Shown here one piece after another: positions 7,467-54,977 of a stretch of 64,000 nt of DNA. Each line of letters opens with the position of its first letter. Within the stretch, counting starts at the first letter, position 1. Position numbers and translations under genes: made by a program. Below the pieces are notes generated by a model. That model was not told the DNA's origin. It saw nothing but the letters and a program-made list of their open reading frames with translations, and searched no databases. The stretch spans positions 1,389,991 through 1,453,990 of the forward strand of contig CP070643.1 of the NCBI GenBank assembly GCA_020354125.1, given 5' to 3'. The stretch comes from Betaproteobacteria bacterium. Lineage in GTDB: Bacteria; Pseudomonadota; Gammaproteobacteria; Burkholderiales; Eutrophovitaceae.

Positions 7467-7721
7467 CAGGCTGATGCATAACTACTGCGCGACCTTGATC
7501 CGGGCTTGCGCCCGTATTGATTTGAACCGGTGCTCGCCCGCCTTCGGCGGTCCGGCCCGGCCACATAGTCGCCGGGCGCTGCGAGCGGGCGCGGCATGCC
7601 GCGCCTACTCCGCTCTCGCCCTCATGTACTCCCTATCTACACTCCGGTTCCTGCGCACTGGTTCTATCAAATCGAGTGCGCACCCGGCTGAAGGCCGCTC
7701 GCGACGTTTTTCAACACCCTG
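7467..7721 (+). mobile_element. MITE-like repeat, copy A (255 bp)
   Basis: It starts caggctgatgcataactactgcgcgaccttgatccgggcttg and ends ...ccgctcgcgacgtttttcaacaccctg. It aligns along its whole length with 54170-54423 (inverted) and at both ends with 45301-45827. Confidence 0.8.
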
Positions 7722-18642: not shown

Positions 18643-18706
18643 ATTAGACATCGCACCGATTAAACATCGCACCGATTAAACATTGCACCGATTAAACATT
18701 GCACCA
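18643..18706. repeat. 4 x 16-bp tandem repeat (attaaacatYgcaccg)
   Basis: Units are at 18643, 18659, 18675 and 18691. The last unit supplies the final codons and the TAA stop (18692-18694) of the M20 gene. Confidence 0.85.
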
Positions 18707-39907: not shown

Positions 39908-40038
39908 ACGCTGAGGCGGGCCCGTCCTTTCTTTCGCCGGGCGTTGATGACAGCTCTGCCGCCGCGGGTACGCATGCGCACAAGAAAGCCGTGACGACGT
40001 TGCCGTCGCGTCTTCGAAGGCTGATAGGTGCGCTTCAT
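39904..40038 (-). CDS. rpmH: 50S ribosomal protein L34
   Basis: My own translation gives [44 protein letters not shown]. It is missing from the ORF track because it is shorter than the cutoff. Confidence 0.95.
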
Positions 40039-40075
40039 AAGTGCTCTCCAAATGGGGTCTTTGAAAAAGCCCGCT

Positions 40076-40104
40076 ATTACACTGATTTGTTGGTCCTATG
40101 TCAA
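40076..40104 (-). promoter_or_regulatory. sigma70-like promoter of rpmH-rnpA
   Basis: The reverse strand has TTGACA (40104-40099), a 17-nt spacer and TGTAAT (40081-40076). Confidence 0.5.
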
Positions 40105-40125
40105 TCCTCGCGTGGTAATCGAGTC

Positions 40126-40134
40126 TGTGGATAA
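40126..40134. promoter_or_regulatory. consensus DnaA box overlapping a putative dnaA promoter
   Basis: TGTGGATAA is a perfect match (reverse complement TTATCCACA). TGGATA (40128-40133), a 17-nt spacer and TAAAAT (40151-40156) could form a -35/-10 pair on the + strand. Confidence 0.6.
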
Positions 40135-40225
40135 CTTTTGTCGAGACTGTTAAAATCCGGCTTCCTTTCCTGGTCACTGCACACCGCAGTTTTGACGCTC
40201 TTGGGCTCGGCTAACACACGCATAA

Positions 40226-41548
40226 ATGGACAGTTTCTGGACACATTGTCTTCGCCACTTTCAGTCGGCGATACCAGCCCAGCAGTTCAAAACCTGGATT
40301 CAGCCCCTCAACGCAGAGTTTGACGGCAAGACAGTTCATATCGCTGCTCCAAACCGCTTCGTGCTCGAGTGGGTGCGGGACAAGTATCTGGGGGATATCC
40401 AGCGCCTGTCTTCGGAATACCTCGACAAGAATGTCGGAATCAACATGACGCTGGCGACGCGCCAAGTGCAACCACCAAGCCCGGCCGCGCAAAGTTCGAC
40501 GGCGCCTGCAAAACCACGTGATCGGGAAAAGAGTCGCCTCAATCCACTTTTTACCTTCGACACTTTCGTCACAGGAAAGGCGAACCAGCTTGCCCGTGCC
40601 GCTGCACTACAGGTGACTGAACACCTCGGTAGTGCCTACAACCCCTTGTTCGTTTACGGTGGCGTCGGCCTCGGCAAGACACACTTGATCCAGGCCATCG
40701 GTAACGCTGTCCGTGACCGGCAGCCCGATGCGAAGATCCGTTACATCCATGCTGAACAGTATGTTTCTGACGTAGTACGTGCTTACCAACATAAAGCCTT
40801 CGATGGCTTCAAAAAGTACTACCACTCGCTCGACCTACTACTGATTGACGACATTCAGTTCTTCAGCCGTAAGAACCGTACCCAGGAAGAGTTCTTCTAC
40901 TTGTTTAACGCGCTGACCGAGGCACATCGCCAGGTGATTATTACCTGTGACACCTATCCAAAAGAAATCTCGGGCATGGAAGACCGCCTGGTGTCGCGAT
41001 TCGGCTGGGGGCTGACAGTCGCCATCGAACCGCCCGAGCTGGAAATGCGCGTCGCCATTCTGTTAAAGAAAGGCGAAATGGAGCGTATGGATTTGCCTGA
41101 AGATGTCGCTTTTTTCATCGCCAACCATATCCAGTCAAACGTACGCGAACTGGAAGGCGCACTAAAGCGCATCCTTGCTTACGCCCGCTTCACAAACGCC
41201 CCGATCACCGTCGAACTGGCGAGAGAGGCACTGAAGGATCTGCTCGCAGTTCAGACGCGGCAGATTTCATTGGAGAATATCCAGAAATGTGTCGCGGACT
41301 ACTACAAGATTAAAGTTTCAGAGATGTATTCCAAGAAGCGTTCGCGCACCATCGCCAGACCGAGACAGATGGCGATGGCGTTGGCCAAGGAGCTGACTTC
41401 AATGAGCCTGCCGGATATCGGTGAAGGCTTTGGTGGCCGCGATCATACGACCGTGCTGCACGCGTGTCGCAAGATCAATGAACTGCGTGCGTCGAATACC
41501 GATATCAACCGCGACTTCGATTCACTGCTCCAGACGCTACGTGGGTAG
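40226..41548 (+). CDS. dnaA: chromosomal replication initiator DnaA
   Basis: 440 aa, with the AAA+ Walker [11 protein letters not shown] and the C-terminal DNA-binding helix ([12 protein letters not shown]). Confidence 0.97.
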
Positions 41549-41569
41549 TCCGGAAATACAACCGATGGG

Positions 41570-41771
41570 AAACACAATGTGGATAACCCGTGCATGACTT
41601 GTGAATATCCAGCACCATCGGTGAAGCAGTTGTTTTCATCCACAATTTGTCCACCGTTTCTACACGAGTAACTTTGGCCGTTATACAAGAAAATTTAATA
41701 ATATATTCAATGACTTAATATAGCTTTTCATGACTCTCGGCCAACCTTACTATTCTTATTATTTATAGAAT
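41570..41771. other. candidate oriC / DnaA-box cluster plus AT-rich unwinding region
   Basis: DnaA boxes are TGTGGATAA 41578-41586 (perfect), tcatccaca 41636-41644 (1 mismatch), ttgtccacc 41647-41655 (2 mismatches) and tgtgaatat 41600-41608 (2 mismatches). A conspicuously AT-rich stretch follows at 41683-41771. Confidence 0.45.
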
Positions 41772-42878
41772 ATGAAACTACTAAATATTGAGCGGGACAC
41801 GCTGCTCAAGCCACTGCAAGCAGTCTCCGGCATTGTCGAACGGCGCCATACACTGCCCATTTTGTCGAATGTACTACTTGAAATTGCAGATAGTGAACTC
41901 AATCTATTAGCAACAGACTTGGAAATCCAGGTAGCGACCAAAGCCAGTCTCGACAAGTCAGCGAACGCGCAGGCGATAACGGTATCTGCCCGCAAGTTAC
42001 AGGATATTCTCCGCTCCCTGCCCGACGCGGCAACCGTGTCGCTTGAAACGCAGGAAAGCAAGCTGGTCCTGCGAGCTGGAAAAAGCCGATTTAATCTACA
42101 AATGCTGCCGGCAGAAGACTTTCCGCGACTGGCGCAAGGAACCGGGGAAGTGGCGACTGTCAGCGTCGCGCAGAAGAATCTGAAGCGCATGCTGCAACTG
42201 GTGCAGTACGCAATGGCCCAGCAGGATATTCGCTACTACCTGAATGGACTGTTACTGTTGGTAGATGCCAACAAGTTGACGCTGGTTGCGACTGACGGTC
42301 ATCGGCTCGCCTGTATTTCAGCAACGCTCGACGAAAAACAACCGCGTGCCGAAGCAATTTTGCCGAGAAAAGCAGTCCTTGAACTGGTGAAGCTTCTTGG
42401 CGACACGGATGACGTCGTCGAACTGCAGATACAGCAAAACCAGGTCAGAAGTCATTTCGGCAGCGTTGACCTGTTATCGAAGGTAGTTGACGGGAAGTTC
42501 CCTGATTTCACTCGCGTCATTCCGTCGAATCCGCCAAGCCGATTCGTCATTACGCGCACCGAGCTGCAGCAGGCTTTGCAGCGGGCATCGATTCTGTCCA
42601 ATGAGAAATTCAGAGGGGTGCGTTGGGTGCTAACCAAAGACATGCTGCGCATCGTCTGTACCAATGCCGAGCAGGAAGAAGCGGAGGAGGAACTGGAGAT
42701 CGACTACTCCGGCGAGCCTCTGGATATCGGATTCAACGTCACTTATCTGCTCGACGTATTGAACAATCTCTCTTCTGATCAAGTTGAGTGTGCGCTCGGC
42801 GATGCCAACAGCAGCATGCTAATAACCGTGCCTGGGGACGAAAACTTCAAGTACGTCGTCATGCCCATGCGAATCTGA
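41772..42878 (+). CDS. dnaN: DNA polymerase III beta sliding clamp
   Basis: 368 aa, with a typical N-terminus (MKLLNIERDTLLKPLQAVSGIVERRHTLPILSNVLL) and C-terminus (VVMPMRI). Confidence 0.97.
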   Translation: MKLLNIERDTLLKPLQAVSGIVERRHTLPILSNVLLEIADSELNLLATDLEIQVATKASLDKSANAQAITVSARKLQDILRSLPDAATVSLETQESKLVLRAGKSRFNLQMLPAEDFPRLAQGTGEVATVSVAQKNLKRMLQLVQYAMAQQDIRYYLNGLLLLVDANKLTLVATDGHRLACISATLDEKQPRAEAILPRKAVLELVKLLGDTDDVVELQIQQNQVRSHFGSVDLLSKVVDGKFPDFTRVIPSNPPSRFVITRTELQQALQRASILSNEKFRGVRWVLTKDMLRIVCTNAEQEEAEEELEIDYSGEPLDIGFNVTYLLDVLNNLSSDQVECALGDANSSMLITVPGDENFKYVVMPMRI

Positions 42879-42900
42879 GCACTTGCGAAAAGCTAACTGA

Positions 42901-45300
<2,400 letters not shown>

Positions 45301-45827
45301 CAGGCTGTTGAAAAACTACTGCGCGACCTTGATCCGGGCTTGTGGCCGGTTCTGATCGATACCGGTTCTGATCAGTACGGTGCTCGCCCACCTACGGTGG
45401 CCCGGCCCGGCGATCACAGTCGCCGGGCGCTGCGACTGGTTTTAATCGAACCGGTGCGCGGCGATGCCGTTTGGCCGCTCCAAACAAAGAGCGAGCAACA
45501 ACGCTGGAAGCGAAAACAGCGCCCCGGACTCGGAGTGGAGCGGGCAGGGGCGCACAGGCTGCGAACACGACTTTGAACCGGGGCTTATGCGGCTGCTCCC
45601 GCACCAGCGCTTCGCGTACCGAGTCGCAGCCGCCATCCCGAAGGGTTACGCGCGGAAGATGTACGGCTTGCGTTTTCTTGCCTGGCCGTCTTCATTTTCT
45701 GGGCGTAACGCATTGTGTGGTCAACTATGAGATAGGTTCTGGGTACACTCCGGTTCCTGCGCACTGCTTCTATCAAACCGAGTACGCACCCGGCTGAAGG
45801 CCACTCGCGACGTTTTTCAACAGCCTG
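45301..45827 (+). mobile_element. MITE-like repeat, copy B (527 bp, composite or expanded)
   Basis: Perfect 16-bp terminal inverted repeats, caggctgttgaaaaac ... gtttttcaacagcctg. It shares both arms with copies A and C. It carries an extra internal segment of about 307 bp (45437-45743) and 2 extra 16-bp units (45346-45377). Flanks are CTAA / TTAA. Confidence 0.8.
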
Positions 45828-45837
45828 TTAAACTCGG

Positions 45838-49013: not shown

Positions 49014-49026
49014 GTGCCCCCTGGGC

Positions 49027-49136
49027 TAATTGATATCGGTGCTAATGATAATCGGTGCTAATGATAATCGGTGCTATTGATAAGCGGCGCTGTTAATAAT
49101 TGGTGCTTCTGATACCGGTTCTATTGATGCGGGTTC
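49027..49136. repeat. 7-unit tandem repeat, period 16 then 15 bp (taatgataatcggtgc)
   Basis: Units start at 49027, 49043, 49059 (the 49043 and 49059 units are identical), 49075, 49091, 49107 and 49122. The array fills the dprA-smg intergenic space. Confidence 0.85.
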
Positions 49137-52903: not shown

Positions 52904-54169
52904 GTGCAGCAGATACAGCTGGCAGCCGCAGCGGCCGTGCAGTCAGTCTTATCCGGCCACAGTCTGACGGACGCTCTGGATAGAGAGTTTCGCAAAGGCT
53001 TGTTGACAGACCAGCAACGCGCAGCGGTTCAAGCCTGCGGATACGGTACGTTGCGCCATCTTGGTTTCTTGCGGTTCGTGCTGGACCGGTTGGTGAAGCG
53101 CAAACCAAAAAATGACAAGGTTGTTTCTATACTGCTGGTCGCGCTCTATCAACTTCAGTACAGCAAGGCAGCGCACTATGCAGTTGTTGATCATGCCGTG
53201 AAGAGCGTCGGGGCAATAGGCGGGCGCACGCTGAAGCCTTTTGCTAACGCAGTGTTGCGCGAGTATTTGCGTAAGCGCCAGGATCTCCTGGATACCGCGA
53301 GCCGTGACGACGTTGCCCGGTTGTCCTATCCACGCTGGTGGATAGACAAACTGCGCGCGCAGTTGGGCCAGCAGGCGGATTTGGTCATGGAACTCGGCAA
53401 CCTGCATCCGCCAATGACGCTGCGCGTCAACCGGCGTCAACTGGAGCCTGTGCTGTATGTCTCGATGTTGGCGGAGCAAGGTTTCGGAGCAACATGGATC
53501 TCTGCAGAAGCTGTGCGATTGGACGAGCCTGTCAGCGTGGAACGCTTGCCCGGCTTTGCCGACGGTGTCGTATCGGTGCAGGACGCGGGTGCGCAAATCT
53601 CGGCGCATCTTCTCGATTTGCAGCCCGGTCAGCACGTACTAGATGCGTGTGCGGCACCAGGTGGAAAGACCGGCCACATGCTCGAGCTCGCTGACGTTCA
53701 CATGACTGCGCTCGACCGCGACTGCGAGCGACTTAAGCGCGTCACGGAAAACCTGGAGCGGCTCGGGTTTCGCGCTCATATACAGTGCGCCGATGCCACC
53801 GACCTTGCTTCCTGGTGGGATGGCACACCGGTAGATCGCGTTTTGCTCGATGCACCTTGCAGTGCGTCCGGCGTGGTGCGGCGCCACCCCGACGTAAAAT
53901 GGTTACGACGGCCTGAAGACATCGCCGGATTCCGCGGCCAGCAAAGAGGTCTGTTGGATGCCTTGTGGCAGGTCGTTGCTCCCAATGGTAAATTGCTCTA
54001 TGTGACTTGTTCCATTTTTCGGGAAGAGAATGAGGAGCAGGTGGACTGGTTTCTGTCCCGCCATGCCGACGCGCTCCTTGAAACGCGACATGACTGTCAA
54101 CGAGGCGGCCTGCTACTTCCCTCAAAAGAGCACGATGGTTTCTTCCACGCCCTGTTCGAGAAGGTCTAG
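52904..54169 (+). CDS. rsmB: 16S rRNA m5C967 methyltransferase RsmB (Sun)
   Basis: 421 aa, with a NusB-like N-domain, the SAM motif VLDACAAPGGKT, and catalytic DAPCSASG / TCS. Confidence 0.9.
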   Translation: MQQIQLAAAAAVQSVLSGHSLTDALDREFRKGLLTDQQRAAVQACGYGTLRHLGFLRFVLDRLVKRKPKNDKVVSILLVALYQLQYSKAAHYAVVDHAVKSVGAIGGRTLKPFANAVLREYLRKRQDLLDTASRDDVARLSYPRWWIDKLRAQLGQQADLVMELGNLHPPMTLRVNRRQLEPVLYVSMLAEQGFGATWISAEAVRLDEPVSVERLPGFADGVVSVQDAGAQISAHLLDLQPGQHVLDACAAPGGKTGHMLELADVHMTALDRDCERLKRVTENLERLGFRAHIQCADATDLASWWDGTPVDRVLLDAPCSASGVVRRHPDVKWLRRPEDIAGFRGQQRGLLDALWQVVAPNGKLLYVTCSIFREENEEQVDWFLSRHADALLETRHDCQRGGLLLPSKEHDGFFHALFEKV

Positions 54170-54423
54170 CAGGTTGTTGAAAAACGTCGCGAGCGACCTT
54201 CAGCCGGTGCGTACTCGCTTTGATGAAACCAGTGCGCAGGAGCCGGAGTGTACAGAGCGAGTACATGAGGCCGAGAGCGGAATTGGCGCGGCACGCAGCG
54301 CCCGCTCGCAGCGCCCGGCAACTTTGTTGCCGGGCCGGACCGCCGAAGGCGGACGAGCATCGGTTCAAATCAATACGGGCGCAAGCCCGGATCAGGGTCG
54401 CGCAATAGTGTTTCAACAACTTG
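54170..54423 (-). mobile_element. MITE-like repeat, copy C (254 bp, inverted relative to A and B)
   Basis: It starts caggttgttgaaaaacgtcgcgag and ends ...gtgtttcaacaacttg. The reverse complement aligns end to end with copy A. It is flanked by perfect CTAG direct repeats at 54166-54169 and 54424-54427. Confidence 0.85.
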
Positions 54424-54977
54424 CTAGGTTTTACGCTCTGCTGCTGGGTGCCTGTCTGCTGGTGTGCAGTACACTGGTTCGGGCAGACAATATCTTCGTC
54501 CAGTCTGTTGATCTGACCACTAACGGCGGCGAGTATTTTCTTAGTGCAAGTTTCGATATCGTGCTCACGCCGACAGTCGAAGACGCGCTCAATCGTGGTG
54601 TTCCGTTGCACTTCCTGGTCGAGTTCGAGGTCATCTATCCTCGCTGGTACACGCTTTATTTCTGGAACAAGCGGATTGTCGAGCAGCAGCAGAATTACCG
54701 CCTGAGTTACAACGCCCTGACGCGCCAATACCGGCTTGGCTACGGCGTGGTGTATCAGACCTTTTACACACTCGACAATGCATTATCGGTGCTCGGCAAT
54801 ATCGAGGGTCAACAGGTATTTGACCAATCAGAGCTCGATGACGACCGCGTCTACGAGGCGGCACTGCGAATGCGACTTGACGTCGAGCGACTACCCAAGC
54901 CAATTCAAATCGATGCGCTTGGCTCCGATGCCTGGGACGTGGCTTCGCCATGGTTCCGCTGGACGGTGCAAAGATGA
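54408..54977 (+). CDS. DUF4390 domain protein (periplasmic, precedes ntrY)
   Basis: Signal peptide-like LARFYALLLGACLLVCSTLVRA, then a DUF4390-like body. No ATG is available. The GTG at 54408 is in frame and lies inside the terminal arm of MITE copy C, so the start is uncertain. The ORF-track start at 54030 overlaps rsmB and is rejected. Confidence 0.65.
   Translation: MFQQLARFYALLLGACLLVCSTLVRADNIFVQSVDLTTNGGEYFLSASFDIVLTPTVEDALNRGVPLHFLVEFEVIYPRWYTLYFWNKRIVEQQQNYRLSYNALTRQYRLGYGVVYQTFYTLDNALSVLGNIEGQQVFDQSELDDDRVYEAALRMRLDVERLPKPIQIDALGSDAWDVASPWFRWTVQR

Follow-up and report, generated by a model that had tools for sequence, protein, structure and literature searches.

MITEPsy1 of Pseudomonas syringae is a 100-nt MITE of the IS5 family with the TIR GGAAGGTCTGAAAAAGCC, a 4-nt CTAG/YTAA duplication and a restricted host range, whose presumed parent is ISPsy2 (IS5 family) and whose transposition has been caught experimentally (PMC3189936). 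YTAR has been given as the duplication motif of IS5 (PMC10359306). Another MITE, Chunjie from Geobacter uraniireducens, is AT-rich and 178 to 235 bp long, with 21-bp TIRs and 9-bp duplications (PMC3184786), and Xanthomonas is reported to express a 75-nt transcript, sX9, which is not called a repeat or a mobile element in the accessible text of its description (PMC3300014). The repeat analyzed here occurs three times in a window of 64 kb (the whole stretch of DNA that was analyzed). It resembles MITEPsy1 in being small and non-coding, in having IS5-like TIRs rich in GAAAAA and a 4-nt CTAG/YTAA duplication, and in being thought to be mobilized in trans, but it differs by its 141-bp core (255 to 527 bp here), its TIR, its covarying hairpin and its hosts, which are Beta- and Gammaproteobacteria and Desulfuromonadia. 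With Chunjie it shares the status of a MITE in Geobacter, a group that also carries the present family, although identity of the two was rejected because the duplication (9 versus 4 bp), the TIR (21 versus 16 bp) and the composition (AT-rich versus GC-rich) differ. Correia/NEMIS, ERIC and RUP are likewise intergenic palindromic sequences of about 100 to 150 bp with long hairpins, but their sequences and TIRs are different (Correia duplicates TA), and neither the Rfam scan nor the similarity searches of the copies returned any of them. The literature searched yielded no description of this element family, which appears to be undescribed so far, though ordinary in kind. We consider the three repeats to be, with high probability, copies of a non-autonomous MITE moved in trans by an IS5-family DDE transposase of the ISPst12/ISDisp1-type clade.

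The window comes from a Burkholderiales bacterium and spans the origin region of its chromosome. A look-up of its GyrB as an exact sequence gave no record. Its gene order, inferred from fully syntenic loci of relatives with GyrB 91 to 94% identical, is dnaA, dnaN, gyrB, convergent topA, DUF494, dprA, a LysM protein, def, fmt, rsmB, DUF4390 and ntrY. The replication-origin neighborhood lies at about 40000 to 45300, and the GC skew changes sign around 40 to 44 kb. The features referred to below are the following:

7467..7721, plus strand: copy A, 255 bp, between two minus-strand genes; left TIR CAGGCTGATGCATAAC (degenerate), right TIR CAGGGTGTTGAAAAAC (reverse-complement reading)
7467-7512 and 7612-7721: parts of copy A homologous to the core
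About 7513-7611: extra GC-rich hairpin module of copy A
40226-41548: dnaA
41772-42878: dnaN
42901-45300: gyrB
45297..45300, plus strand: left target duplication of copy B, CTAA, its TAA being the gyrB stop
45301..45827, plus strand: copy B, 527 bp, TIRs perfect (16/16)
45301-45469: left arm of copy B, matching a 288-bp subfamily (L016, L112)
45470..45742, plus strand: interior of copy B, about 270 bp, with a counterpart in no other copy
45743-45827: right arm of copy B
45828..45831, plus strand: right target duplication of copy B, TTAA, 3/4 identical to the left one
54166..54169, plus strand: left target duplication of copy C, CTAG, its TAG being the stop of an rsmB-like gene (52904-54169)
54170..54423, minus strand: copy C, 254 bp, inverted with respect to A and B; TIRs CAGGTTGTTGAAAAAC and CAAGTTGTTGAAACAC
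54424..54427, plus strand: right target duplication of copy C, CTAG, identical to the left one

All three copies were found where an earlier note, made from the letters of this DNA, had placed them. As described there, A and C are alike along their length (the repeat finder reports them as an inverted pair, 88% complementary over 224 nt), and B shares both arms, with 51 nt in common with A at 88% on the left and 88 nt at 93% on the right. The DNA flanking the three copies is unrelated. The description of the ends was equally accurate: the TIR pair of B (CAGGCTGTTGAAAAAC / GTTTTTCAACAGCCTG) matches at 16 of 16 positions and is followed inward by an imperfect extension, the flanks of C and B read CTAG/CTAG and CTAA/TTAA, and copy A, said to have no target duplication and the most degenerate TIR, is bordered by TTAC/TCAA, a decayed pair agreeing at 2/4 positions. 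Beside the right terminus, the 19-mer CTCGCGACGTTTTTCAACA is exact in A, B and C; allowing up to three mismatches it occurs three times in the window, in the three copies alone, against 0.05 expected from shuffles. A profile search of the 64 kb with nhmmer recovered A, B and C and nothing more. At 254 to 527 bp and without coding capacity, the copies are within the size of a MITE (non-coding, less than about 600 bp). Their TIRs, a duplication of fixed length (4/4 in C, 3/4 in B, 2/4 in A), insertion polymorphism and multiple intergenic copies agree with the MITE-like nature proposed at the outset.

The left 170 nt of B match the 288-bp subfamily of other genomes, so that copy B is a member of this subtype (L016, L112) with its center replaced by about 270 bp. 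None of its ORFs has a Pfam match, and the interior at 45470-45742 has neither a Pfam match nor a passing Rfam match, nor any similarity to IS5-family insertion sequences by blastn or tblastx. A relic of the parent insertion sequence was ruled out for this segment, as all three kinds of search were empty; it is passenger or replacement sequence. The statement that no transposase is present in the copies or in the window also held: with E. coli InsH and four transposases of the ISPst12 clade as queries, tblastn found no IS5-type transposase in the window, in 112 related loci or in the loci of the relatives.

To evaluate the extent of the family, a 19-mer scan was run over one GTDB genome per species, giving at least 112 places, with about four matches expected by chance. 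Six matches lack any element feature (Rhodobacteraceae, Hyphomicrobium, Flavobacteriales, Acidobacteriota, Verrucomicrobia and Opitutia). The rest, among the matches listed, comprise Burkholderiales MAGs, Gallionella and Gallionellaceae; Roseateles aquae and R. violae, both cultured, together with Noviherbaspirillum; Porticoccaceae, many other Gammaproteobacteria MAGs and Thiohalobacter; and Geobacteraceae, Oryzomonas and Desulfuromonadaceae. When the right ends were each joined to the closest left TIR, at least 88 complete elements resulted, 52 of which are exactly 141 bp long among the matches listed. In these 88 related elements, again among the matches listed, the 16-bp TIR is conserved, and from one host clade to another the interior varies, whereas the elements still align from end to end. 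The subterminal boxes differ between the two ends, ACT[AG]CTGCG versus CTCGCGACG, each being strongly conserved. Solitary right ends in eight loci were considered as possible insertion sequences and rejected, as they are degenerate copies.

Full-length relatives of the window type (239 to 289 bp) come, among the matches listed, nearly all from Burkholderiales MAGs; one (L112) is from a MAG labelled Gammaproteobacteria. One MAG with a window-type element also has a 143-bp core copy (L068). The window type consists of the 141-bp core with additional GC-rich hairpin modules at its center and in each arm, and judging from these alignments the window copies are a lineage-specific 255-bp Burkholderiales variant of the core, belonging to a family that is by the same comparison far larger and older than three copies. 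Related units also occur outside the elements. The window contains three intergenic tandem arrays with a period of 15 to 16 nt and related units (CGGTKCTRAT...-like) at 392-423, 18643-18705 and 49025-49128. The array between DUF494 and dprA is missing from the relatives, where the spacer measures merely 28 to 29 nt. Units resembling those of the arrays make up the modules added to the arms of the window-type MITE (45347-45376, 7516-7529 and 54361-54374), and the unit pattern had five matches against 1.0 expected.

Searches of mobile replicons with the whole element were nearly empty. Copy A had no match among annotated plasmids by BLAST, and the 141-bp core had one partial match, on a Nitrosomonas plasmid, with no IS5-family gene nearby in the 48.6 kb examined out of 78.6 kb. 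A TIR scan of viral contigs gave chance-level matches alone, with no partner end and no YTAR flanks. On a Pseudomonas aeruginosa plasmid (LT969519.1, 443346-443522), both TIR-type queries match about 177 bp apart in opposite orientation, which suggests that this clinical megaplasmid may carry a copy of the MITE family.

The parent insertion sequences were found by short queries alone, made of TIR plus flank. When plasmids were searched with 31-nt queries (CTAG, the TIR and subterminal bases), the first 19 to 25 nt found a match in more than 120 records, and the matches inspected were ends of complete insertion sequences, five of which are described here:

Paraburkholderia phymatum pBPHY01: 1335 bp, flanks CTAG/CTAG, one end CAGGCTGTTGAAAAAC, matching copy B at 16/16
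Burkholderia thailandensis plasmid: 1335 bp, flanks TTAG/TTAG, ends CAGGCTGTTGAAATAC
Eleftheria terrae plasmid: 1355 bp, flanks CTAG/CTAG, CAGGCTGCTGAAATAC, with about 10 TIR matches in the record
Pseudomonas putida, ISPst12-type: 1331 bp, flanks CTAG/CTAG, one end CAGGCCGTTGAAAAAC
Diaphorobacter, ISDisp1-type: 1321 bp, flanks TTAA/TTAA, ends CAGGCCGTTGAAAAA(T/G)

The end CAGGCCGTTGAAAAAC of the ISPst12-type element is also the left TIR of several 141-bp MITE copies. The scanned transposases have 361 to 371 aa, and the one from B. thailandensis contains Pfam DUF772 and DDE_Tnp_1. NCBIfam NF033581 was passed at 264 to 318 bits (cutoff, 140) by four scanned transposases, covering four of the five insertion sequences; the P. 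phymatum transposase is 87% identical to that of B. thailandensis. With 366 bits, E. coli IS5 InsH also passes this model, and the transposase clade is present in 274 plasmid records. Thus, the earlier suggestion of an IS5-group transposase is borne out by five complete insertion sequences that share the TIR and the 4-bp YTAR duplication and by the passing of NF033581 by the four scanned transposases and InsH. The loose resemblance to IS903-type ends that the note also mentioned gives way to the exact matches with ends of the ISPst12/ISDisp1 type. The gene bounded by the same TIR that the note proposed to search for does exist in the records of other hosts, but there is none in the 64-kb window.

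The MITE and the ISPst12/ISDisp1-type elements are therefore alike in their terminal 16 nt (up to 16/16) and in the 4-bp YTAR duplication. They are unlike in that the insertion sequences measure 1.32 to 1.36 kb and carry a DDE transposase, and the likeness is confined to the terminal 16 to 22 nt. This limit argues against a simple deletion origin: the MITE is not a mere deletion product of any insertion sequence examined, and the conserved subterminal boxes of its ends are absent from them. From the shared ends and target, the ISPst12/ISDisp1 type of the IS5 family is likely the mobilizing transposase type, and we infer that members of this clade mobilized the MITE and that the two would have resided in the same cells. 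Such a transposase would recognize the 16-bp TIRs, CAGG(C/N)TGTTGAAAAAC, excise or copy the element and insert it at YTAR by a 4-nt staggered cut, the repair of which would duplicate the tetranucleotide. Surviving copies would often lie on the stop of a gene, where the duplication would regenerate the stop, as in B and C.

The insertions were also traced by comparing filled with empty sites. In one pair of loci (L006 filled, L010 empty), the flanks are 91% identical and the empty site has a single TTAC; in another (L029 filled, L033 empty), a single CTAG is found. The sites of B and C are empty in five syntenic loci from four relatives (GyrB 91 to 94% identical), and a profile search detected no element copies in these loci (10 to 22 kb each). 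The gyrB-topA spacer measures 6, 6, 63, 63 and 11 nt in the relatives, compared to 537 nt in the window, and deleting B together with one copy of the duplication brings the stops of gyrB and topA to a distance of 6 nt, the spacer length of L114 and L115. At the site of C, the next gene of the relatives follows directly after the rsmB stop, and in L114 one CTAG stands in place of the CTAG-element-CTAG of the window. Transposition rather than segmental duplication, the alternative by which the note could have failed, is what these empty sites and the two further pairs support. We infer that the window copies were mobile in the past.

Among the matches listed, 43 of the 88 elements have identical 4-bp flank pairs (CTAG 11, CTAA 11, TTAG 8, TTAA 4 and 9 others, the other motifs being ATAG, CTAT, CCAG, CTAC, GTAA and ATAA). 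In 42 of the 75 elements with enough flanking DNA, also among the matches listed, an ORF of 80 codons or more has one copy of the duplication as its stop codon, against a background of 29% of all YTAR sites in these loci that adjoin such a stop. There is an orientation bias as well: among the 88 elements (L001 to L112, matches listed), the end next to the gene stop is of the left type (ACT[AG]CTGCG) in 32 cases and of the right type in 16. In the window, B starts directly after the gyrB stop and C directly after the rsmB stop. Since YTAR contains TAA/TAG and intragenic insertions are harmful, copies are expected on stop codons, and the stop survives because the duplication regenerates it (copies B and C). 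The enrichment thus suggests a YTAR target combined with selection against intragenic insertion, with a host function as a possible addition.

Such an addition, in which the MITE proposed above would also have been co-opted by the host as a bidirectional terminator, a 3'-end stabilizer or a donor of start codons, is an alternative that we consider unlikely. It would fit the stop adjacency and its orientation bias, the hairpin kept by compensatory change (see below), the location of B between the convergent gyrB and topA genes, 6 to 63 nt apart in the relatives, and the transcription of a related Xanthomonas sequence as sX9 (PMC3300014). Copy C adds a further case. In the relatives, the DUF4390 gene starts at a TTG just past the rsmB stop, and this ancestral start is lost here (54408-54977 of the window, copy C and the downstream gene); the downstream DUF4390 frame stays open across the entire copy C, and an in-frame GTG at 54408, inside the end of the copy, is followed by a plausible signal peptide, MFQQLARFYALLLGACLLVCSTLVRA. 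Copy C may thus now supply the DUF4390 start codon. However, the stop adjacency is explained by YTAR and purifying selection with no need of a function, the relatives do without the element at the sites of B and C, and the orientation differs between these two copies.

Alignment of 23 non-redundant 141-bp elements gave an end-to-end hairpin of 35 pairs in which 93% of cells are paired, versus 77% in shuffled and 37 to 46% in slid controls, with a covariation score of 0.415 (0.134 shuffled, 0.05 to 0.10 slid). In 16 pairs both partners have changed and the pairing is preserved, and the arms covary across host clades (Burkholderiales, Gammaproteobacteria and Geobacteraceae). Folding gave -110.8 kcal/mol (z, -3.8) for copy A and -251.8 kcal/mol (z, -6.7) for copy B, and between copies there are compensatory changes in the stems of UNCG-type loops. 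The modules added in the window type fold as small GC-rich hairpins, likewise with compensatory differences between copies. Covarying hairpins and subterminal boxes that differ between ends are common among bacterial MITEs but go beyond what transposase binding alone would explain; the covariation of the arms suggests a constraint beyond transposase binding. From the fixed length, the different invariant subterminal boxes and the compensatory hairpin, it could be proposed that the 141-nt core is under selection as a folded single strand, either as an RNA with a role in the host (a 3'-end stabilizer or terminator on stops, or an sX9-like sRNA) or as a structured transposition intermediate. We regard this proposal as doubtful, and to our knowledge no such intermediate is known for IS5-family elements.

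A known RNA family does touch the copies. The note had proposed an Rfam scan to exclude a known ncRNA; at gathering thresholds the scan of the window reported a cobalamin riboswitch elsewhere (RF00174, 13331-13616, minus strand, 66.1 bits) and no family on the copies. Below threshold, the right arms of all three match sX9 (RF02228) over the full model, with 28.3 bits for A, 23.4 for B and 29.7 for C (E values of 0.001 to 0.06), against a gathering score of 44 bits. The right arm can be aligned to the sX9 consensus over its entire length, with the terminal GTTTT..CAGCC included; the model covers only this one arm. Two sX9-matching loci, in Xanthomonas sacchari (L120, 2459-2575) and on X. citri pXcB (L119, about 2500-2545), look like degenerate members of the superfamily, and one Xanthomonas sX9-type plasmid locus directly follows the proC stop codon. 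Like the present elements, the Xanthomonas loci lie after stops, and sX9 appears to be a degenerate relative that may derive from a MITE. The description of the repeat as unrecognized therefore stands as far as passing Rfam families and the literature are concerned, but not entirely, as the sub-threshold match represents a relative already catalogued as an sRNA.

Taken to the extreme, these matches would make the repeats genes for a structured, sX9-like non-coding RNA rather than mobile DNA, with the ends acting as a closing helix. The full-model sX9 matches, the 35-pair hairpin with its compensatory pairs, the UNCG-type loops and the stable folds of A and B would all agree with it. We nevertheless think this very improbable: the sX9 scores are under the gathering score, the copies occur in either orientation with respect to the genes next to them (compare B with C), B and its surroundings yielded no promoter-like site, and the target duplications, empty sites and identical ends of insertion sequences show insertion as DNA. 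An RNA role could add to mobility but cannot replace it, and the MITE moved by an IS5-family transposase remains our preferred reading.

The target duplication also bears on the type of transposase. Mariner ends begin CAGG, as do the ends of the present elements, and the bases beside TA are complementary in B and C (A...T, G...C), so that a MITE of the IS630/Tc1-mariner type could be envisaged, inserting at TA within CTAG and duplicating TA alone, with the next base being part of the TIR. The flank-register test rejected this model, to which we give practically no credence. Among the matches listed (78 related elements), the flanks agree in the 4-bp register at 0.81, 0.81, 0.73 and 0.81 per position, compared to 0.05 to 0.10 in the 2-bp register and at most 0.42 per position in all other registers (2, 3, 5, 6 and 8 bp). 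Moreover, 28 of the 43 identical pairs are non-palindromic (for instance, TTAG/TTAG, CTAA/CTAA and CTAT/CTAT), which under a TA duplication would need non-complementary TIR bases, and the insertion sequences with these ends encode transposases of the IS5 and not of the IS630 family. A TA-only duplication is therefore excluded, and by this comparison of flanks the duplication is 4 bp with the target consensus YTAR, the motif that the earlier note had given for IS5-group transposases. REP/BIME palindromes (short units of about 20 to 40 nt without target duplication), or a segmental duplication or gene conversion free of any transposase, would account for an intergenic, GC-rich, hairpin-forming and multi-copy sequence but hardly deserve consideration in view of the defined termini, 16-bp TIRs, 4-bp duplications, precise empty sites, unrelated flanking DNA and a length of 141 to 527 bp, well beyond that of a REP unit.

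As for their age, the window copies are probably old insertions, made after the split from the sampled relatives and now immobile, since they diverge by 7 to 12% from each other, the ends and flanks of A are decayed and there is no transposase in the 64 kb; the duplication of B also carries one mismatch. These results leave the understanding of transposition unchanged and bring no new principle. They explain three unannotated intergenic blocks beside essential genes (gyrB/topA, rsmB) and link a widespread, apparently undescribed repeat to a defined transposase clade, with the YTAR target of IS5-type elements directing copies to stop codons while the genes stay intact. Metagenome assemblies are broken by such copies, which are also usable as presence/absence markers between close Burkholderiales lineages, and at least one catalogued sRNA family, sX9, appears to be derived from a mobile element.
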